Source: Promethearchaeota archaeon (GTDB lineage Archaea; Asgardarchaeota; Lokiarchaeia; Sigyniarchaeales; SOKP01). Taken from it: 34,941 bases of DNA. This document shows, in pieces, positions 3,679 through 20,034 of the stretch (positions are counted from its first letter, which is position 1; every line of letters begins with the position of its first letter). A program made the translations under genes and the position numbers. A model generated the notes under the pieces. It was not told where the DNA came from, made no database searches, and was given only the letters and a program-made list of their open reading frames with translations. The DNA is taken from the NCBI GenBank assembly GCA_019058245.1, contig JAHPZJ010000007.1, positions 1 to 34,941 of the forward strand. Direction: 5' to 3'.

Positions 3679-4425
3679 TTAATTTTTATCAGAAAGCAGT
3701 AAAGCATTAGTTATAATTAATCCTGGTTTTACTATAACATCATACTTCTTCGCTTCTAAAAACCCTTGGACTTCTTTTGCTACATTTTCTATTTTCTTTA
3801 TATCATGCTCATCAGGAACTGAATAACTAATGACTGATTGGGCGGATTCTAATTCTATTTTACCTACTTCGTCAGCTTTTTCTATTGAAACATGATTTGC
3901 ACCAGCTAATGTTGCAATTTTTTTAATTTCTTCCTCTAAAGAGCCAAATGTAAAATACTCTTTACTTCTCGACAGGAATTTTTCTGATATAATCTTTTCT
4001 AAATGTGCCCGGGAGGTTGGATCATAAAAAGCAGTTAATTCTTGAGCACATATAGTTTTATACTTCCCTTGAATTAGTTCTTCTTTACTATTTATAAACT
4101 CAATTAATTTTTCATAATATTCTGGGTCTATCTTTTGAAAGTTTTCTATATTTCTAACTAAATCCGTCAATTTATCAATCAAATCATAATAAAATTTTAA
4201 GATAGACTTAATTTCCAATTTATCCTTCATCTCTTTTATTTCAGGATAATACTTTTTAAGAATTAGGTTAATACTCTTATTAAATTTAGCACAAACATTG
4301 GCAATATCATCAACAACTTGAATAGAATTTCTATTTAATAGTTCAATTAAATGAATTTCTAAACTTGGTAAACCTTCAAAAATTTCGGTGATCTTAAGTC
4401 TGTATTTTTTTTCAATATAACTCAT
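3679..4425 (-). CDS. Hypothetical protein (helical N-terminal part, small alpha/beta C-terminal part)
   Basis: 248-aa ORF with genome-typical composition, co-oriented upstream of proS; no motif recognised. Confidence 0.8.
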   Translation of the reverse strand: MSYIEKKYRLKITEIFEGLPSLEIHLIELLNRNSIQVVDDIANVCAKFNKSINLILKKYYPEIKEMKDKLEIKSILKFYYDLIDKLTDLVRNIENFQKIDPEYYEKLIEFINSKEELIQGKYKTICAQELTAFYDPTSRAHLEKIISEKFLSRSKEYFTFGSLEEEIKKIATLAGANHVSIEKADEVGKIELESAQSVISYSVPDEHDIKKIENVAKEVQGFLEAKKYDVIVKPGLIITNALLLSDKN

Positions 4426-4512: not shown

Positions 4513-5721
4513 CTACAAACCCGAGAATATTTTTACTACAGTCATTATTACCCCTGAAACTAAAGGAACAGTAAGATTATCATCCACTCCAAATGAAAAG
4601 AGTTCAATTAAAGGTGCTACGGCACCTCCACATATAAGGATAAGTAAAGGAATATCCAAAAGAAAGAATAAAAAATATCCACAAATGAGAACACAACCTA
4701 AGTAAGCTAATGTTCCTTCAACTGTTTTGTCATAAATCTTATGCTTACCAAATGCTAATCCAAATATTTTTCCAAAAATATCTCCAAATATAAGAAATAC
4801 TAATGAAGCTATAGCTATGGTTTTTTCAAATAGTAAAATGCTAATAAAGGCAGCAACTAGAAATATTGTCATTGATGAAAACTTGCTAACCTCACTTTTT
4901 TTAAAAATTGCTTTCACTTTTTCAGTTAGAATAACATTTGTTTGTTTATTTAAGAATCGCACTAATTCTAATAATATAAAAGCTAATGCAACTGAACCAA
5001 TGAATATAAGTGAAGGTAACCATGGATTAAAAGCATAAAAAATAACAAAAATTATGGCAAAAGGTCTCATCGCTACTCGCCACCAATGAGCTTTAAATGT
5101 CTCATCCTCGATTATGATTTTTTTTTCTGATATTACTTTATAAAGTCCTATTGACGCTATGTGAATAAGAATTAATATAAAGAATAAATTATACGCACTT
5201 GTAGGATAGATTTGAAAAACAGCAAAACCAAGAATAGGAAATGTAATAAGAGATAAGAGAGAGCCAACCCTACATATATAAACAAAAAGAACAACTAAAA
5301 TTATCAAATATAGTATTACAAAGAAAATCTCTAAACTTATAGCCATATAACTAACCAAATAAAAAAGTAATAAACCTGTCGATGTAGCTACACCCTGACC
5401 TCCACGAAAATTAAGATAATAAGGGAAAATGTGTCCGATAATAGCGACAATTCCACATAATTGTATTATAAAAAAGTTTCGATTCAATCCATAAGCCATT
5501 AACATTACTGCTAATCCTTTTAAAGTATCATATATTGCTGTCGGAATTGCATATTTGAGTCCCAAAACTCGAAACGCATTTGATGTTCCAGGATTCTTTG
5601 TACCTTCCTCCCTTAAATCAATTCCTTTTATTTTTCCAAAAATATACGCTGGTAAAATTCCCCCGATTAAATAACTTAAAATAACGCATAAAATATCTAA
5701 AAACAGTTCAATAAGATCCAT
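4513..5721 (-). CDS. plsY: PlsY-like glycerol-3-phosphate acyltransferase fused to a CTP-dependent dolichol/phytol/diacylglycerol kinase-like membrane domain
   Basis: N-half: SYLIGGI, GTKNPGTSNAFR, DTLKG, GHIFPYYLNFRGGQGVAT (PlsY motifs 1 and 2). C-half: FGDIFGKIFG..FGKH, KTVEGTLA, DDNLTVP (dolichol kinase/Dgk1/VTE5-type signature). Confidence 0.85.
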   Translation of the reverse strand: MDLIELFLDILCVILSYLIGGILPAYIFGKIKGIDLREEGTKNPGTSNAFRVLGLKYAIPTAIYDTLKGLAVMLMAYGLNRNFFIIQLCGIVAIIGHIFPYYLNFRGGQGVATSTGLLLFYLVSYMAISLEIFFVILYLIILVVLFVYICRVGSLLSLITFPILGFAVFQIYPTSAYNLFFILILIHIASIGLYKVISEKKIIIEDETFKAHWWRVAMRPFAIIFVIFYAFNPWLPSLIFIGSVALAFILLELVRFLNKQTNVILTEKVKAIFKKSEVSKFSSMTIFLVAAFISILLFEKTIAIASLVFLIFGDIFGKIFGLAFGKHKIYDKTVEGTLAYLGCVLICGYFLFFLLDIPLLILICGGAVAPLIELFSFGVDDNLTVPLVSGVIMTVVKIFSGL

Positions 5722-7908: not shown

Positions 7909-9639
7909 TTAATGATATAGAAACAAAAAACGTTCCATATAGTATAAGAAAATCTGATTATAATAACCATTAAAATAGAAGTCTGAAGCATGACCAGCAA
8001 GAGGCATCCATAATATAGTACACTTTCTATTTCCTTTAGCGTAATATGTATTTTGTATATTTTGTGAGATACTAAAATAATTAAGTATATCATGGGTACC
8101 TTGAAAAATAAGGCAGGGTGGACTATCACGTTCAACTAATTTCTCTGGATTTTTGAATACATCAGAACCACTAACTCCAAAAAACCCCATTTGTCCATTT
8201 GCCGGATAAAATGGAACTAAACCTTTGATTTTTATACTCGTACTAAAAATATCCGTATAATTTCCACTCGCAATAGCTAAAGCTACAGCACAAGTCAGAT
8301 GTCCTCCAGCGGAACCTCCACTTATAAATACAGAATCTAAATTAGCACCATAAATTTCCGTATGATTAGTAATATAACTAGTAAAGACACCAATATGTCG
8401 GATCATATCATCTATATTGAAATTCCCTTTTTTATAATTTGGAGTTAGAGGATCAAGGGCATATAAAGGATTTTCATCTATCCCATATTGTATATCAAAA
8501 ACATTATAACCTTGAGCTGCAAAATACTTATTCATCTGCATCATATTCATTAAACCTTTATCACCAGAGACCCAACCCCCTCCATGGATTCGGATGATTG
8601 TTGAATTAACACCAGGAAGATCATTTGTTTTAATCAAGGGCATATAAGCATCAAAATAGAGTTTAATATCTTCATCATCATAGAATAATGTATTTTTTTC
8701 AATTTTACAGTCCTTAGGAGGGATTCCTAAAAAATAATTTGATAACGAAAATGGAGTTTCTATAAAGTGTCGATTTACCTCTTGAGGGATACTTTCCTTC
8801 CAATTTGACTCAAACATATTCGAAAAGTTCCTTTCGATGGTAATAGTCGTGTTATGTGTTAAAAACAGAGGTACCATTAATAATCCAGAAACTATAATAC
8901 CAATTGTTATATTTCTATAAACTTTTTTATTGTTCCATTTACGATGTTTTAATTTCAAGAGTAAGATTGTATTTGCAAAAAAGATTAGTGAAAAGAATAG
9001 ACCAAATTGCCCTGAAATAATTGCTATAAACGTGCTGACAATTTCAAAAGATCCAAAAATACAGACTATTCCAAAGAGGATTCCTATAATGAAAGTTATT
9101 CTAGATATAATTGTTAGAACCTTTTTTAAGAAATATTTAGTTTTTATAAATTTTATTGAATATTTCCTCTGGACAATTTGATTCTGCAACCTTAGGTTAT
9201 ATTGTTCACTAATTCTAATCCCAAAAATAGCATAAAAAATTCCAAAAGCCATTGTTCCAAAATAAAAAAGATAAATTAACATATAGGCTCCTAAATTATC
9301 AATTAATCGATTAGAATAAGTAACTGAAATCAGTAAATTCCCTAGCATCAAGCATACTATAGCAATAATAATAAAAATCAAATAAATATAACTCAACAAG
9401 TTCCACTTCGGGAATATAAAATGATTATTCCTTTCCTTTATTGAATTTATAAAAATCAATATAATATTTTCAAAAAGAGCTATTAATAAAATAACCCCAA
9501 AATAATCCCATAAGGTAGAATAAATTGGAAATAATATATAGATAATTCCTAAGAAGATACAGCATGAATTCAAGATAACTGTTAAGTAGCTTACAATTTT
9601 AGATGGAGGAAATTTTAACCATTTATTATTAGTATTCAT
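7909..9639 (-). CDS. Polytopic membrane-anchored alpha/beta hydrolase (HSL-like esterase/lipase)
   Basis: About 7 N-terminal hydrophobic segments, then IHGGGW oxyanion motif, GGSAGG nucleophile elbow, QGTHD (Asp) and AGH (His). Confidence 0.9.
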   Translation of the reverse strand: MNTNNKWLKFPPSKIVSYLTVILNSCCIFLGIIYILFPIYSTLWDYFGVILLIALFENIILIFINSIKERNNHFIFPKWNLLSYIYLIFIIIAIVCLMLGNLLISVTYSNRLIDNLGAYMLIYLFYFGTMAFGIFYAIFGIRISEQYNLRLQNQIVQRKYSIKFIKTKYFLKKVLTIISRITFIIGILFGIVCIFGSFEIVSTFIAIISGQFGLFFSLIFFANTILLLKLKHRKWNNKKVYRNITIGIIVSGLLMVPLFLTHNTTITIERNFSNMFESNWKESIPQEVNRHFIETPFSLSNYFLGIPPKDCKIEKNTLFYDDEDIKLYFDAYMPLIKTNDLPGVNSTIIRIHGGGWVSGDKGLMNMMQMNKYFAAQGYNVFDIQYGIDENPLYALDPLTPNYKKGNFNIDDMIRHIGVFTSYITNHTEIYGANLDSVFISGGSAGGHLTCAVALAIASGNYTDIFSTSIKIKGLVPFYPANGQMGFFGVSGSDVFKNPEKLVERDSPPCLIFQGTHDILNYFSISQNIQNTYYAKGNRKCTILWMPLAGHASDFYFNGYYNQIFLYYMERFLFLYH

Positions 9640-14192: not shown

Positions 14193-15665
14193 TTGATTTA
14201 CGACGTTATCATTATTGGAGGTGGTGTTACTGGTTGTTGTATAGCTCGTACACTTTCAAAATATGATTTAAATATTTGCTTATTAGAGAAGGAAACAGAT
14301 ATCGCTTCTGGAACAAGCAAAGCTAATTCTGGTGTTATTCACGCGGGCTATGCATCTCCTAGAGATTATATTAAACGACAATTAGCTATTAGAGGAAATA
14401 AATTATATACTCAAGCAGCAGAGGAACTAAATTTCCCTTTTAAAAGAATTGGTTCGTTTGTCGTAGCTTTGGAGGATAATCAGATTAAGCAACTGGAAGA
14501 GGAAAGAAAAAAGGGGATTGAGGATGGGATTCCAGGATTAGAGGTCATTTTAAATAAAGAAAAAATAAAAAAAATGGAACCAAGACTAACTGATGAGGTT
14601 GTTGGTGTGTTGCATGCACCTACTGGTGGCCTTGCTAGTCCTTATGAATTAACCTTTGCCTTAGCAGAAAATGCTTCTATGAATGGAGTCAAATTTTTTA
14701 GAAATCGTAGAGTTGTCAAAATTACTCATCAAGAATATGTTTTTACTGTACGAACGCTTGCAGGAGAATTTAAGAGTCGAAATATTATCAATGCCGCAGG
14801 ATTGTATGCTGCCCAAATCTCTAGAATGTTAGGTTTAGATTATTTTAGCATAACACCAAGAAAAGGTGAATATATACTTTTTGACCGTAATGCAATTCAG
14901 CTAAATAAAATCTTATTCCCAATGCCCACAAAAATATCAAAAGGAATTTTAGTTTGCCCCACATTACATGGTAATACTTTTATTGGTCCAAATGCTCAAA
15001 ATATACCTGATCTTGAAGATATATCCACAACTACTTCAGGTTTAAAAGAAATCTTAGAAGGTGCCATGAAGTTAGTTCCCAGTCTTCCTGTAAGAAGCTC
15101 GATAAGAAATTTTGCTGGATTAAGAGCAGTCCCAGAGGCTTATGATTTTATCATAGATAATACTGATGTTTATGGATTTATTAATGTTGCTGGGATTTTA
15201 TCACCAGGATTAACAGCAACTTTTGCAATTGCAGAAAAAGTAGTCGAATTTCTTGAATTATTAGGTGAGAAATTAAAAGTGAAAGAGGATTATAATCCTA
15301 GTCGTCCTAAGCCAGAAAGATTTAAAGATTTTACCAAAGAAGAACTTGATAAAAAAATACAAGAAGATCCAACTTGGGGTAGAATCATATGTCGATGTGA
15401 AACCATTCCTGAAAAAGAAATTATAGATGCCATTCATGCCCCAGTTGGAGCTACGACAGTTGATGGAGTTAAATTTCGCTGTAGACCGGGAATGGGTAGA
15501 TGTCAAGGTGGGTTCTGCCGTCCTAGGGTTATTGAAATCTTGTCAAGGGAACTAAAGAAATCATATGAAGAAATTACTAAAAGGGGAGAGGATACCAACA
15601 TTTTAATTGGAAAAACTAAGGACTTTCTATTAAATCAAAAAAGGGAGGGATCTCGGGGAAAATGA
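14193..15665 (+). CDS. GlpA-like FAD-dependent oxidoreductase (glycerol-3-phosphate dehydrogenase-like) with BFD-like [2Fe-2S] domain
   Basis: GGGVTG, GTSKANSGVIHAG, PRKGEY, FAGLRA, GILSPGLTA; C-terminal ICRCE...GMGRCQGGFC. TTG start with GGTGA SD. Confidence 0.9.
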   Translation: MIYDVIIIGGGVTGCCIARTLSKYDLNICLLEKETDIASGTSKANSGVIHAGYASPRDYIKRQLAIRGNKLYTQAAEELNFPFKRIGSFVVALEDNQIKQLEEERKKGIEDGIPGLEVILNKEKIKKMEPRLTDEVVGVLHAPTGGLASPYELTFALAENASMNGVKFFRNRRVVKITHQEYVFTVRTLAGEFKSRNIINAAGLYAAQISRMLGLDYFSITPRKGEYILFDRNAIQLNKILFPMPTKISKGILVCPTLHGNTFIGPNAQNIPDLEDISTTTSGLKEILEGAMKLVPSLPVRSSIRNFAGLRAVPEAYDFIIDNTDVYGFINVAGILSPGLTATFAIAEKVVEFLELLGEKLKVKEDYNPSRPKPERFKDFTKEELDKKIQEDPTWGRIICRCETIPEKEIIDAIHAPVGATTVDGVKFRCRPGMGRCQGGFCRPRVIEILSRELKKSYEEITKRGEDTNILIGKTKDFLLNQKREGSRGK

Positions 15666-16960
15666 AAAAATATGAAGTGGATGTTGTTGTAATAGGTGGT
15701 GGATCGGCAGGATTAGCTGCTGCTATAGTTGTTAAAAAGGCAGATTTGAATGTTTTAATAATAGAGAGAGATAAAGAATTAGGAGGAATAACCCTCCAGT
15801 GCATTCATAATGGTTTTGGTCTTCATGAATTTGAAGAAGAATTAACTGGTCCTGAATATGTTCAAAAATTTATAAACGAAGCTCGAGACTTAAATATTCC
15901 ATATTTGTTAGATACTATGGTAATTGAATTTACACCAAATAAAACTGTATATGCAGTAAATAATAAAGAAGGTTTAATAGAAATTAATGCTAATGCTATC
16001 ATTCTCGCCATGGGATGTAGAGAAAGAACTAGAGGTGCGATTAATATACCTGGTTTTCGACCATCTGGTATATTTACTGCTGGACAAGCCCAAAGATTTG
16101 TTAATATTGAGGGATATTTACCAGGTAGAACCTTTGTTATATTAGGAAGTGGGGATATTGGTATGATTATGGCACGTCGCCTAACATGGGAAGGATGTGA
16201 AGTTAAAGCTGTCGTAGAAATTCAACCTTATGTGAGTGGATTAATAAGAAATCAAGTCCAGTGTCTTGAAGACTATGGAATTCCCTTGATTACTGGTTAT
16301 ACAATTACAAAGATTCATGGAAAAGATCGTATAAAAGGGGTGACAATAAGTAAAGTAGATCATAACTTCGATAGAATCATTGGTTCTGATAAATTTTTTG
16401 AATGTGATACTTTATTATTATCTGTTGGGTTAATTCCAGAAAACGAGTTAACTAGAGAATCTGGGGCAGAAATTTCACAAATGGGAGGTCCTGTCGTAGA
16501 TAATAATCTAGAAACAACAATAGATGGTGTTTTCGCTTGTGGGAATGTTTTGCAAGTTCATGATTTAGTGGATTTAGTTACAGCAGAAGCAAAACGAGCT
16601 GGTTTAAATGCCACTGAATATATTAAAGAAAGATATGGTAAAGAAATAGGGAAAAAGTTACGTATTAAATGCGAAGCAGGTGAGAATGTTAATTATATAA
16701 AACCCGATTTAATAAATAAAACCGATTTATTAAATGACATAATTTTCACCTTCCGAGTAAAAGTACCAGAAAGAAGAATTTTAATTCAGATCAGAGATAA
16801 TAAAAATAAAGTAATCTATAAGAAAAAGAGACGATATGTTATACCCAGTGAAATGATTGAATTAAAATTAAATTTAAACAAATTAAATATAGATTCTGAT
16901 TCCACTAATTTAGTGGTTGAAGTAATACCTCGACCAGAGGTATTGATCGAGAAGGATTAA
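15662..16960 (+). CDS. FAD/NAD(P)-dependent pyridine nucleotide-disulfide oxidoreductase (GlpA partner subunit)
   Basis: GGGSAG, GGITLQCIHNGFG, LTGPEY, AMGCRER, GSGDIG, GNVLQVHDLVD; ATGA overlap with the upstream gene. Confidence 0.92.
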   Translation: MKKYEVDVVVIGGGSAGLAAAIVVKKADLNVLIIERDKELGGITLQCIHNGFGLHEFEEELTGPEYVQKFINEARDLNIPYLLDTMVIEFTPNKTVYAVNNKEGLIEINANAIILAMGCRERTRGAINIPGFRPSGIFTAGQAQRFVNIEGYLPGRTFVILGSGDIGMIMARRLTWEGCEVKAVVEIQPYVSGLIRNQVQCLEDYGIPLITGYTITKIHGKDRIKGVTISKVDHNFDRIIGSDKFFECDTLLLSVGLIPENELTRESGAEISQMGGPVVDNNLETTIDGVFACGNVLQVHDLVDLVTAEAKRAGLNATEYIKERYGKEIGKKLRIKCEAGENVNYIKPDLINKTDLLNDIIFTFRVKVPERRILIQIRDNKNKVIYKKKRRYVIPSEMIELKLNLNKLNIDSDSTNLVVEVIPRPEVLIEKD

Positions 16961-16982
16961 TTAAAACTAGAGGTATTTAGAA

Positions 16983-17381
16983 ATGTCGACTATTAATAAT
17001 GAAAAAAATCTTCCTGAAGGATCTAAGGAAATTAGATGTATAGTTTGTCCTACTGGATGTCTTGTTCATGTGGAAAACGTTAATGGAGAATTAATCATAG
17101 AAGGTCACTCCTGTAAAAGAGGGGAAGAATATGCAAGGGAAGAATTCGTCGCTCCAAAAAGAATCCTTACGACAACAATGCGAGTTGAAAATGGATTTTT
17201 GCCATTAATACCAGTTCGATCTGATAAAGCAATTCCAAAAGAAAGATTAAAGGAGACTTTGAAACTCATAGCAAAGACTAAGCTTAAAGCTCCAATAAAA
17301 ATGGGAGATATACTATTAGAAAAAGTATTAGGCTTAGAAATCAATATTATTGCTAGTAGAGATTTGATTGAAGTCAGATAG
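16983..17381 (+). CDS. DUF1667-family small Fe-S protein
   Basis: CIVCPTGC...CKRGEEYA.EE..P.R.LTTT...PVRS...AP...GD; typical third gene of the GlpA trio. Confidence 0.88.
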   Translation: MSTINNEKNLPEGSKEIRCIVCPTGCLVHVENVNGELIIEGHSCKRGEEYAREEFVAPKRILTTTMRVENGFLPLIPVRSDKAIPKERLKETLKLIAKTKLKAPIKMGDILLEKVLGLEINIIASRDLIEVR

Positions 17382-17476
17382 TATTAGCTTTTTTATAAAA
17401 TCATGATATTTTTTATAAATATGTATCAATAACTTTAGATTTGAATTTTTATTCATTATATTAGTATAATAAAGAG

Positions 17477-18859
17477 ATGAATTATTTGAATAAAGATGAA
17501 ATTCTAACTCAATTAGAAAAAATATCTGGAAGAGATTTTGTATCTAATAAAACTGGAGATCTTTTTATCTATTCCCAAGATCCTGGAGCCTCTGAATCAC
17601 GCCCAGTTGATTTTGTAGTATTACCAAAAACTGTAGAAGAGATTCAAAAAATCGTAAAATTAGCAAATAGTGAAAAAATTCCTCTTATTCCTATGGGAGG
17701 GGGATTGACACTTAGTGGGCTAATAATTCCCGTAAGGGGTGGTATTGTATTAGATCTAAAGAGAATGAATCAGATACTTGAAATAAATGAATTAAACCGT
17801 TATGCTTTATTGGAACCAGGAGTAACTACTGGGATGCTCAAGGCATATTTAAGCGAAAATTACCCTGAATTACAGCCTCCTATTCCCGACGCACCACCCT
17901 CGGCTACTATTGCAGGAAATATGTTAATACACGGTTCAGGGTCGTTATCTCAAAAATATGGATGCCACTCCTCTATGATTAATGGTCTTGAAGTTGTATT
18001 ACCAACTGGAGAAATAGGCAAGTTTGGATCTTGTGCAGTTTCAGAATATTGGTTTTCAAAGGGACCTATTCCTGATTTAATTGGTCTATTTACAAGTGCT
18101 TTTGGAACAATGGGTATTATTACAAAAATATCTATTAAATTATTTCCACGACCAAAATTTAGAGATATGATTTTTGGTTTTACTAAAGGCTTCTCAGACT
18201 TGCCGAAACTCATGTCTAAAATAACTTTTACTGAATTAGCTGAAGATATTATGATCGCTAAAGGTGATGTCCCAGAAGCTTACAAAAATTTTGGAATGTT
18301 AATGGTTTATTTTGCTGGAAATTCCAAAGATGAAATGGAATTTAAGAGAAAAACGATAGAAAAGATTTTTAAAGATCATAAAGCTCAAGTTGTTCCACTA
18401 GTAGGAAAAGCTAGAGAGCGACTGATGGCAGAACCACAATACGGAGCAGCATTAGCAGCAGATTGGAGGAAAGGCGGTGGATTTGAATATGTTGGATCAT
18501 TTATTCCATTAGAAAAAATTCCAGAAGCTATTGAGAAAGGCACAACAATATCTAGAAAATATGGGCTTTTAACTTCTCTTCTCTTTAGGTTAATTGGTAG
18601 AGGCCATGCTGTAATGTTTTCTGTGACTTTCCCCTTTAATCGTTCAGATTCTAAAGATATGATAAATACAAGGAAAGGATTGGAGGATGCTGATAAAATG
18701 ATATTGGAAATAGGAGGAATCCCCTGGAAGGCAGAACTAACTGGTCAAAAATTAATACTGGAGAAAATGGATCCTAACTTTAAAAAATTATTTAACAATA
18801 TTCGAAATATATTTGATCCTAACGGGATTATGAATCCTGGGAATTGGGAGGTACAGTAA
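17477..18859 (+). CDS. FAD-binding oxidoreductase (VAO/GlcD superfamily, divergent cap domain)
   Basis: PMGGGLTLSG, LDLKRMN, EPGVT, PDAPPSATIAGN, GLEVVLPTGE, FDPNGIMNPG. Confidence 0.9.
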   Translation: MNYLNKDEILTQLEKISGRDFVSNKTGDLFIYSQDPGASESRPVDFVVLPKTVEEIQKIVKLANSEKIPLIPMGGGLTLSGLIIPVRGGIVLDLKRMNQILEINELNRYALLEPGVTTGMLKAYLSENYPELQPPIPDAPPSATIAGNMLIHGSGSLSQKYGCHSSMINGLEVVLPTGEIGKFGSCAVSEYWFSKGPIPDLIGLFTSAFGTMGIITKISIKLFPRPKFRDMIFGFTKGFSDLPKLMSKITFTELAEDIMIAKGDVPEAYKNFGMLMVYFAGNSKDEMEFKRKTIEKIFKDHKAQVVPLVGKARERLMAEPQYGAALAADWRKGGGFEYVGSFIPLEKIPEAIEKGTTISRKYGLLTSLLFRLIGRGHAVMFSVTFPFNRSDSKDMINTRKGLEDADKMILEIGGIPWKAELTGQKLILEKMDPNFKKLFNNIRNIFDPNGIMNPGNWEVQ

Positions 18860-18861
18860 AA

Positions 18862-20034
18862 ATGACATCTGAAGTTAGTCAGGATTGGAAAAGTATTGTA
18901 CATAGATGTTTTCGATGTGGCTATTGTAAATTCACTCATAGTTATTCTGATTTTAATTGCCCTAGTTATAAAGAATACAAATTTGAAACATACAGTACAG
19001 GAGGACGTATGTGGTTAATTTATGGATTAATCAATAATGATCTTAAATGGAGCCAGGATTTAGCAAACGTTCTATATGCATGTCCTACATGTGGTAATTG
19101 TACAGAAAATTGTAAATTTGAAAAATTTAAGGGTTTTCTTGTAGATATTATTGAAGCAGCGCGTGCGGAAGCATTTAACAATGGTTTTTGCCCAGAAAAT
19201 CAAAAATTTTTACTAGAACGTACCAGAAATTCAAATAATTATAATCCATATGGTGAGAAGAATTCAGATAATAGTGAATTAAAAAAGAAATATAATTTAC
19301 CAGAAAAGGCAGAATGGGTATACTATATCGGATGTACATCTAATTATCGTCAACAAGATCTTAGAGATGCTACTTTACGATTATTGAAAAAAGCTGGAAT
19401 TGATTTTACTCTTATAGATGAACATTGTTGTACAAGTCCCTTAATTAGAACTGGTCAAAATGAAATAGTCCCTGATTTTATAAATTATAATATAAATCAA
19501 ATTCGAAATGCCGGAGCATCTAAAGTAATAACTTCCTGTGCAGGATGTTATAGAACATTAAAAAAAGATTATGAAAAGTTTGGAGCAGATCTAGGATTTG
19601 AGGTGTTTCACACAGGTGAATTAATTAAGAAATTATTGAAAGAGGGAAAAATTAAAATTCTATCGAATTATGAGAATATTGTAACCTATCATGATCCTTG
19701 TCATTTAGGAAGACATATGGATATGTATGAAGTACCAAGAGATATAATTAAATCAATTCCAGGAATAAAATTTATTGAGATGAAACGGAATCGGGAAAAT
19801 GCTTGGTGTTGTGGTGCGGGAGGAGGGGTGAAAATAGGTTATCCAGATTGGTCCGTAGAAATATCAAAAGAACGCTTAGAAGAAGCCAAAGAAACCGGAG
19901 CAACAGTTCTTACATCAATGTGTCCATTTTGTAGAACTAATTTATCTGATGCGAATAAGAAATTTAATATGGGTTTTGAGATCATTGATTTAATTGAGTT
20001 AATAGATCAATTAGAAATAGAAGTTAATGACTAA
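18862..20034 (+). CDS. GlpC/GlcF/HdrD-like Fe-S protein with CCG domains
   Basis: CFRCGYC...CP, CPTCGNCTENC, GC, EHCC, SCAGC, YHDPCHLGR, CCGAGGG, CPFC. Start placed at ATG 18862, just after the upstream stop. Confidence 0.92.
   Translation: MTSEVSQDWKSIVHRCFRCGYCKFTHSYSDFNCPSYKEYKFETYSTGGRMWLIYGLINNDLKWSQDLANVLYACPTCGNCTENCKFEKFKGFLVDIIEAARAEAFNNGFCPENQKFLLERTRNSNNYNPYGEKNSDNSELKKKYNLPEKAEWVYYIGCTSNYRQQDLRDATLRLLKKAGIDFTLIDEHCCTSPLIRTGQNEIVPDFINYNINQIRNAGASKVITSCAGCYRTLKKDYEKFGADLGFEVFHTGELIKKLLKEGKIKILSNYENIVTYHDPCHLGRHMDMYEVPRDIIKSIPGIKFIEMKRNRENAWCCGAGGGVKIGYPDWSVEISKERLEEAKETGATVLTSMCPFCRTNLSDANKKFNMGFEIIDLIELIDQLEIEVND

Follow-up and report, generated by a model that had tools for sequence, protein, structure and literature searches.

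A PlsY-like domain with an altered acceptor pocket fused to a lipid-kinase-like membrane domain in Asgard archaea and uncultured bacteria

The open reading frame (ORF) at positions 4513-5721 of contig JAHPZJ010000007.1 (assembly GCA_019058245.1), from a Promethearchaeota archaeon of the Lokiarchaeia, encodes a membrane protein in which a domain resembling the bacterial acyltransferase PlsY precedes a domain resembling dolichol kinase, phytol kinase and Dgk1. The window referred to below is the whole stretch of DNA analysed, positions 1 to 34,941 of this contig. A preliminary description, made from the letters alone, had proposed such a fusion in a single ORF, and the fusion is real: both domains of ORF 4513-5721 were matched. 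The features of the fusion gene, with its N-terminal and C-terminal halves called the N-half and the C-half, are as follows.

4513..5721, minus strand: the whole ORF, 402 amino acids plus stop, a two-domain integral membrane protein of ~15 helices (ORF list, AF2 model)
5122..5721, minus strand: N-half, residues 1-200, a PlsY-like seven-helix domain (PF02660, 5xj5 sequence match, fold)
5569..5604, minus strand: PlsY motif 1 loop, residues 40-51 (GTKNPGTSNAFR), with T41 in place of S35 and with N48 and R51 retained
5386..5436, minus strand: PlsY motif 2 or phosphate hole, residues 96-112, with H97 (=H92) and G107/G108/G110 invariant and Q109 in place of K104
4516..5103, minus strand: C-half, residues 207-402, a dolichol/phytol/Dgk1-kinase-like domain of the CdsA/CarS superfamily
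4714..4785, minus strand: kinase core motif, residues 313-336 (GD...G...FGK...KTVEG), D314 being the counterpart of Dgk1 D177
4576..4605, minus strand: C-terminal motif, residues 373-382 (E...DDN), with E373 nearly invariant and D381 and N382 invariant

The closest database proteins are 402 amino acids long and align across 99-100% of the ORF, so the start codon and the gene model are sound. The best relatives, with 75-86% identity, come from Asgard metagenome-assembled genomes (MAGs) labelled Promethearchaeota, Odinarchaeota and Hodarchaeota. The gene has a GC content of 27%, equal to that of the remainder of the window, and is flanked by archaeal TFB and ProRS genes. Contamination or a chimeric assembly was ruled out by the GC content, the archaeal neighbours and the 85% identical syntenic loci in other Asgard MAGs; the fusion gene is native to the contig.

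The N-half matches PF02660 over residues 15-188 with 121.6 bits (cut-off 24.1, E-value 4e-35). The TIGR00023 PlsY equivalog was not reached, with 114.8 bits versus a cut-off of 137.2, and the cut-offs of the remaining PlsY equivalog models likewise lie far above the scores of the fusion protein. The sole solved relative found by sequence is the PlsY of Aquifex aeolicus (aaPlsY; 5xj5, E-value 6e-18). We modelled the full fusion with AF2 from an alignment of 55 fused homologues and obtained a pLDDT of 95.6 and a pTM of 0.89. Foldseek with the full-length model returned PlsY only, with 5xj6/5xj7 at an E-value of 7e-6, a probability of 1.00 and a TM-target of 0.68-0.69 over 192 columns, and left the C-half unmatched; the N-half of the model superposes on 5xj5-5xj8 with a TM-target of 0.66-0.69. 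The fusion protein and aaPlsY (PDB 5XJ5-5XJ9; PMC5700162) thus have their Pfam family and seven-helix fold in common, but the fusion adds ~200 C-terminal residues, which make up a second enzyme domain. It further differs from canonical PlsY in falling under the equivalog cut-off, in forming a separate clade on a long stem and in having no PlsX partner that we could find.

In aaPlsY, the phosphate of the acyl-phosphate donor is held by the backbone amides of K104-A107 and by His92, the acyl carbonyl is held by A40/T41, and glycerol-3-phosphate (G3P) is clamped by S35, R45, K104 and N180, plus S142 and H177; the acyl group is transferred via attack on its carbonyl, and single substitutions at sites of the G3P pocket lower the activity by 70-95% or more (PMC5700162). 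These positions were compared in an alignment of fused N-halves (91 Asgard, 7 from FCB-type bacteria and 46 others) and 96 canonical PlsYs. The donor site is shared, including H92, the GGxG phosphate hole and N42. H97 (=H92), G107, G108 and G110 are each present in 91/91 Asgard fused copies and N48 in 90/91, and these residues, together with D65 and K68, vary little or not at all in either the Asgard or the bacterial fused copies. The donor-site residues of the fusions are therefore as invariant as those of canonical PlsY.

The acceptor clamp is different. The S35 site, occupied by Ser in 92 of the 96 canonical sequences, holds Thr, Asp or Ser in 65, 13 and 12 of the 91 Asgard copies; the R45 site, Arg in 81 canonical sequences, holds Lys in 30, Arg in 24 and His in 21; and the K104 site, Lys in 95 canonical sequences, holds Gln in 70, Arg in 9, Lys in 7 and Glu in 5. 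Gln also occupies the K104 position in 7/7 FCB-type bacterial sister copies. For S142, H177 and N180, the alignment of fused N-halves yields no conserved counterpart, so that S35, K104, S142, H177 and N180 are all replaced or unconserved. The window protein itself has T41, S47, R51 (=R45, kept), H97 and Q109 at the key sites; the GGQG that the preliminary description had read in place of GGKG is correct. Its reading of HIASIGLYK as a reduced motif 3 is wrong, as H187 aligns to a hydrophobic column of transmembrane helix 7 in canonical PlsY. The motif-3 region aligns ambiguously: canonical H177 falls on G192 or E199, depending on the alignment used, and both columns are unconserved, with no conserved His in either. 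Judged by these alignments, the N-half is a PlsY paralogue that has kept the phosphate pocket and lost most of the G3P clamp. The variation among Gln, Arg, Lys and Glu at the K104 site may reflect diversified acceptor specificity among the Asgard copies.

Assigning the C-half required several lines of comparison. Scanned alone, it matches PF01148 (CTP_transf_1) only, with 18-18.5 bits, under the cut-off of 24; this model covers the family poorly, since just 11/45 relatives match it at E<0.01, and NCBIfam holds no model that matches. A HMMER full-library search found 2576 relatives, including many proteins of ~400 amino acids that match with their own C-terminal halves and many stand-alone proteins of ~190-220 amino acids; one relative carries the source label 'dolichol kinase'. 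A feature search of the ESM atlas gave sub-0.9 leads only ('phosphatidate cytidylyltransferase family', and one cluster of which 14% carries PF01148). The profile built from 45 relatives matches TmCdsA (E-value 1e-3) on the D..A...G..FG......K-S/T-x-E-G motif. The model of the C-half alone has a pLDDT of 93.4. Aligned by VIA-align against 48,161 representative chains, it matches TmCdsA 4q2e first (Z 10.1, root-mean-square deviation 5.5, 172 residues) and CarS 5guf second (Z 7.9), followed by unrelated chains with Z <=7.5; the top Foldseek match is 4q2g, with a probability of 0.98 but an E-value of 0.12. The membrane cytidylyltransferases CdsA (TmCdsA, 4Q2E) and CarS (5GUF) are thus the best structural matches, although the C-half is shorter than CdsA. 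The C-terminal signature that we take to be that of CdsA was not noticed in the C-half, no formal search for it having been made.

With hhalign, the C-half profile is related over ~190 columns to two dolichol-kinase-like paralogues of the same genome (E-values 5.5e-15 and 1.2e-13; probabilities 98.4% and 98.1%); for the CarS that the genome encodes, no relation is found (probability 0.3%). These stand-alone paralogues, of 347 and 361 amino acids, lie on other contigs (C10 and C30; L003:1000-2043 and L004:1051-2136) and carry R-K-x-x-H and D-N motifs, and their N-terminus has a further membrane region; the genome thus has these two genes besides the fused kinase domain, which is an additional paralogue. 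All of the family-invariant residues are present in the window protein (R215, R255, E277, G313-D314, G321, E335-G336, G365, E373 and D381-N382). G313, D314, G321, E335 and G336 are invariant or nearly so, D314 across 55 fused and 45 relative sequences. In yeast Dgk1, the D177A mutation abolishes the activity, which depends on cytidine triphosphate (CTP) (PMC2459266). Like the CTP-dependent lipid kinases Dgk1, Sec59/DOLK and VTE5 of the PF01148 superfamily (PMC2459266), the C-half is a polytopic domain of ~200 amino acids with a conserved Asp (D314), a GD...G...G...K-T-x-E-G core and a CdsA/CarS-related fold. In contrast to these relatives, it falls under the Pfam cut-off, it is fused to PlsY, its substrate may not be an alcohol, and the N-terminal R-K-x-x-H/R motif known from stand-alone relatives reads W-R-V-A-M-R with the Lys lost. 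This RVAMR start had been noted correctly (W214-R215...R219-P220). In size, in motifs and in its lack of relation to the genome's own CarS, the C-half resembles the kinase branch, and from this likeness we infer, indirectly, kinase chemistry and the use of CTP. Because several weak lines agree, namely the sub-threshold PF01148 match, the fold and the hhalign result, we accept it as 'CTP-type lipid-kinase-like', though no curated threshold is met; the first assignment to the dolichol kinase/Dgk1/phytol kinase group is borne out to this extent.

The two domains appear to work together. When the N-half tree is rooted with canonical PlsY, every forward fusion falls into a single long-stemmed clade (SH-aLRT 99). 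A subclade uniting the Asgard with the FCB-bacterial copies is recovered from either half, with 98 for the N-half and 97 for the C-half, which argues for a shared history of the halves. A bacterial genome (G005) encodes, on contig C30 (L099:1477-2636), a 196-aa PlsY-like protein and a 190-aa kinase-like protein as a split pair with a 4-nt overlap, and reverse-order fusions are found in the marine metagenome proteins P0225 and P0277. Because the single forward clade, the translationally coupled split pair and the reverse-order fusions all exist, we regard the domains as functionally coupled. Predicted as a complex of separate chains, the halves gave a median score of 0.31 versus a mark of 0.32, which was weighed neither way. 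The genome with the split pair also encodes a canonical PlsY, another short PlsY-like gene and a fusion. A reverse-order fusion of 431 amino acids in a TARA marine metagenome (L108:6001-7296), kinase-like then PlsY-like, adjoins a gene with a faint match to PhyH (phytanoyl-CoA dioxygenase).

We scanned one genome per GTDB species with a 14-sequence alignment as the query and found 376 stretches encoding a relative, of which the best 80 were examined. These 80 are mostly Asgard; the others come from a WOR-3 bacterium, a Latescibacterota MAG, a Caldithrix and several 'uncultured bacterium' MAGs. The WOR-3 fusion lies on a 340-kb contig, with type-IX-secretion cargo genes on either side. Single relatives bear the labels Thermoplasmatota (a MAG) and Bacteroidota. 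Three deep-branching fused lineages that we inspected have bacterial surroundings, such as SecA, sigma-70, SpoIID, porin, FeoB and FtsX. The tree of full-length proteins unites the Asgard copies in a clade (98) whose sister group is the FCB-type bacterial copies and which is nested within these deeper lineages. Since this clade nests among lineages in bacterial contexts, acquisition from bacteria is more parsimonious, and the Asgard fusion was probably acquired from them; these are quick or FastTree trees in which many deep rows are unlabelled and, in the N-half tree, the Asgard copies are not cleanly monophyletic. The preliminary description had left the question of bacterial acquisition open, and it had allowed that the fusion might be a well-characterised bacterial family; the probable answer to the first is yes, and the second does not apply, as the family, though probably bacterial in origin, is uncharacterised.

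Within the Asgard archaea, PF02660 is matched in 93/251 genomes. In the genus of the window, the fusion gene is present in 11/18 genomes, and one of the 7 genomes without it is 99% complete; with so patchy a distribution, the gene is accessory. Tandem arrays of two to four fusion paralogues occur at L039, L041, L042, L045 and 12 other Asgard loci, and some Asgard genomes hold 3 to 11 PF02660 matches. Genomes of other Asgard families (f6, f15, f26 and f28) carry genes for stand-alone PlsYs of ~220-250 amino acids that match the whole PF02660 profile with 146-182 bits. These stand-alone proteins are better candidates than the fused type for canonical PlsY activity.

The pathway context was examined in the window genome, which is 76% complete, and in 61 genomes of its GTDB family that are at least 85% complete. 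The window genome has GGGPS and CarS. The preliminary description had pointed to plsX, plsC and glycerol-1-phosphate (G1P) dehydrogenase as informative: PlsX (PF02504) and PlsC, as well as DegV/FakB (PF02645), were not found in the 76%-complete genome, and the searches for G1P dehydrogenase and GpsA gave threshold-level, non-specific matches only. In the family, PlsX and DegV/FakB are each found in 0/61 genomes. Because neither known source of acyl-phosphate was found, the fused kinase would be the sole candidate source left in the archaeon, and the earlier suggestion that the kinase half supplies the donor is plausible. The bacterial carriers differ: each of the five that we tested (5/5) encodes PlsX, a GGGPS/PcrB homologue and, as a stand-alone protein, a PlsY that matches the full profile (150-181 bits). 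Because these bacteria keep canonical PlsY and PlsX, the fused protein is not the housekeeping PlsY where the comparison can be made. A related logic is known from PlsX, FakA/FakB and the PlsY-DegV fusions of Bellilinea and Thermanaerothrix, the last of which were read as acyl-phosphate channelling: a module that makes or carries the donor is joined to its consumer (PMC5700162). In the fusion described here, the attached module is a membrane-embedded kinase-like domain of the CdsA superfamily, unrelated to PlsX, FakA or DegV, and it occurs in a lineage (the window genome and the family genomes) in which no PlsX, FakA or DegV module was found.

Apart from the ProRS and TFB genes, the surroundings of the fusion include three further features.

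3679..4425, minus strand: a soluble-looking 248-aa ORF, 88 bp downstream of the fusion, a conserved neighbour in Asgard only
7909-9639, minus strand: a 576-aa alpha/beta-hydrolase resembling esterases or lipases (BD-FAE / Abhydrolase_3), two genes away from the fusion
14193-20034, plus strand: a four-gene row of DAO+BFD, Pyr_redox_2, a GlcD-like FAD oxidase and Fer4+CCG (GlpC/TfrB-like)

No lipid gene lies within ~3 kb of the fusion in the window, where only ProRS, TFB and the 248-aa ORF are found, and no consistent neighbours were found among the bacterial fusion loci inspected. The 248-aa ORF lies directly downstream on the same strand in 52/81 related loci, all of them Asgard; it has no Pfam match and no atlas match, and no counterpart is present at the bacterial fusion loci compared. 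It may be co-transcribed with the fusion, or its position may be mere inherited synteny. The alpha/beta-hydrolase gene, kept in 32/81 related loci, could encode a candidate releaser of free fatty acids. In the four-gene row, the DAO+BFD protein (14193-15665) scores best in NCBIfam against type 2 glycerol-3-phosphate oxidase (293 bits versus a cut-off of 460) and GlpA; the row, ~8.5 kb from the fusion, may encode a dehydrogenase complex for G3P (or a 2-hydroxyacid).

The reading that we tentatively prefer, and hold at a little under even confidence, is that the kinase half makes a lipid phosphate, most plausibly an acyl-phosphate, and that the PlsY-like half transfers the lipid to an acceptor that is not bound like G3P. 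The lipid, the order of the steps and the acceptor are those that we infer as follows. On the cytoplasmic leaflet, the kinase half would phosphorylate a lipid of the membrane, most plausibly a free fatty acid, which would give a labile acyl-phosphate. This would be handed directly from the kinase to the phosphate hole of the PlsY-like half, which would release phosphate and pass the acyl group on, either to some acceptor that is not G3P or to one held in another way than G3P. Acyl-phosphate is favoured as the intermediate because it is the natural donor of PlsY, because it is labile and because PlsY-DegV offers a precedent for its channelling (PMC5700162). The narrower form of this proposal, that the C-half is a membrane-embedded CTP-dependent fatty-acid (or other lipid-acid) kinase wired to a PlsY paralogue that acylates a non-G3P acceptor, as a self-contained salvage or remodelling enzyme, is possible but more doubtful.

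Several points weigh against the proposal. To our knowledge, no member of the dolichol-kinase family phosphorylates a carboxylate, the known substrates being lipid alcohols. The call of a kinase and not a cytidylyltransferase stands on a sub-threshold Pfam match, similarity to the paralogues and motifs. The position that hydrogen-bonds the acyl carbonyl in aaPlsY (A40/T41; here T41 of aaPlsY) bears a hydroxyl in just 53/91 Asgard copies. A phosphorylated acceptor may be used, as R51 is kept in the window protein and a Y-N/K motif lies near the motif-3 region in many copies. In addition, the bacterial carriers have PlsX, so that a private kinase suggests a special donor and not an ordinary fatty acid.

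If the acceptor were indeed G3P or G1P, the protein would be a true self-contained acyltransferase independent of PlsX, in which acyl-phosphate made by the kinase is transferred to give lysophosphatidate and, from there, ester or hybrid lipids. We consider this unlikely. The PF02660 score well over its cut-off, the retention of R51 (=R45) and the intact donor site agree with it; bacterial PlsY is reported to take both G1P and G3P (PMC13400652), and with a GlpA/GlpO-like candidate at 14193-15665, 8.5 kb off, G3P may be a metabolite here. However, of the six clamp residues, three to five have been replaced or are not conserved, the TIGR00023 cut-off is missed and PlsC was not found in the 76%-complete genome. 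Moreover, 7/18 genomes of the genus lack the gene, and the bacterial carriers keep their canonical PlsY along with PlsX. The route from G3P acylation to bacterial or hybrid phospholipids, as first put forward, therefore finds little favour.

Isoprenoid salvage, in which the kinase would phosphorylate geranylgeraniol, phytol or a polyprenol and the PlsY-like half would transfer or process the prenyl monophosphate, is improbable. In alkyl transfer a monophosphate leaves poorly, and the chemistry of PlsY attacks a carbonyl, although a carbonyl-binding position that has lost its conserved hydroxyl would suit a donor without a carbonyl. The characterised relatives of the C-half all act on lipid alcohols (PMC2459266), but two stand-alone dolichol-kinase-like paralogues are already present. 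GGGPS and CarS in the organism, and the GGGPS/PcrB homologue in every bacterial carrier tested, fit such salvage, but the co-occurrence concerns five related genomes without a control set.

There is little probability that the order is reversed, with the PlsY-like half acylating glycerol or a monoalkylglycerol and the kinase half then phosphorylating the product with CTP as a Dgk1-like monoacylglycerol kinase. The loss of the phosphate clamp suits a phosphate-free acceptor, Dgk1 phosphorylates a glycerolipid alcohol (PMC2459266), and monoacylglycerol occupies the active site of aaPlsY in 5xj5 (PMC5700162), but an outside source of acyl-phosphate would be needed, and neither PlsX nor FakB was found in the 61 family genomes. 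That the PlsY-like half is inert, a membrane scaffold or lipid-binding module in what is simply a polyprenol or dolichol kinase, would agree with the lost G3P clamp and the dispensability of the gene within the genus, but is very improbable given the (near) invariance of H97, G107, G108, G110, N48, D65 and K68 across the Asgard and bacterial fused copies and the renewed origin of the pairing as reverse-order fusions and a split operon.

PlsY homologues of Lokiarchaeota and Thorarchaeota are already known and have repeatedly been cited as a hint of bacterial-type or chimeric membranes (PMC6737245, PMC6431249, PMC13400652), and a 2022 review describes the function of the Asgard homologues as still unknown (PMC9385802). 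A Pfam-based look for PlsY fusions by Li et al. reported DegV only (PMC5700162), probably because Pfam does not detect the C-half. In the literature that we searched, outside which subscription papers (e.g., Villanueva 2017) lie, we found no description of a PlsY fusion with this kinase-like domain or of the altered pocket; the fusion and the rebuilt acceptor pocket are new to that literature.

Returning to the preferred scheme of a kinase that activates a lipid for a PlsY paralogue, the 'bacterial PlsY of Asgard archaea' would probably be an accessory activate-and-transfer enzyme and not the first step of a bacterial-type membrane. The Lokiarchaeia-type 'PlsY' is a separate, fused paralogue whose acceptor pocket has been rebuilt, and it is dispensable in its genus and found beside a normal PlsX/PlsY in bacteria; because it is distinct, rebuilt, probably bacterial and dispensable, it is weaker evidence for G3P ester lipids. 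The question is thereby recast as which lipid is phosphorylated by the kinase half and which acceptor is acylated by the PlsY-like half. If the kinase half makes acyl-phosphate, this would be a new way of activating fatty acids in membranes; a fatty-acid kinase of this type would add a third way of making acyl-phosphate to those of PlsX and FakAB, bring a new reaction to the dolichol-kinase superfamily and provide, together with the PlsY paralogue, a lipid salvage and remodelling enzyme common to Asgard archaea and uncultured bacteria.

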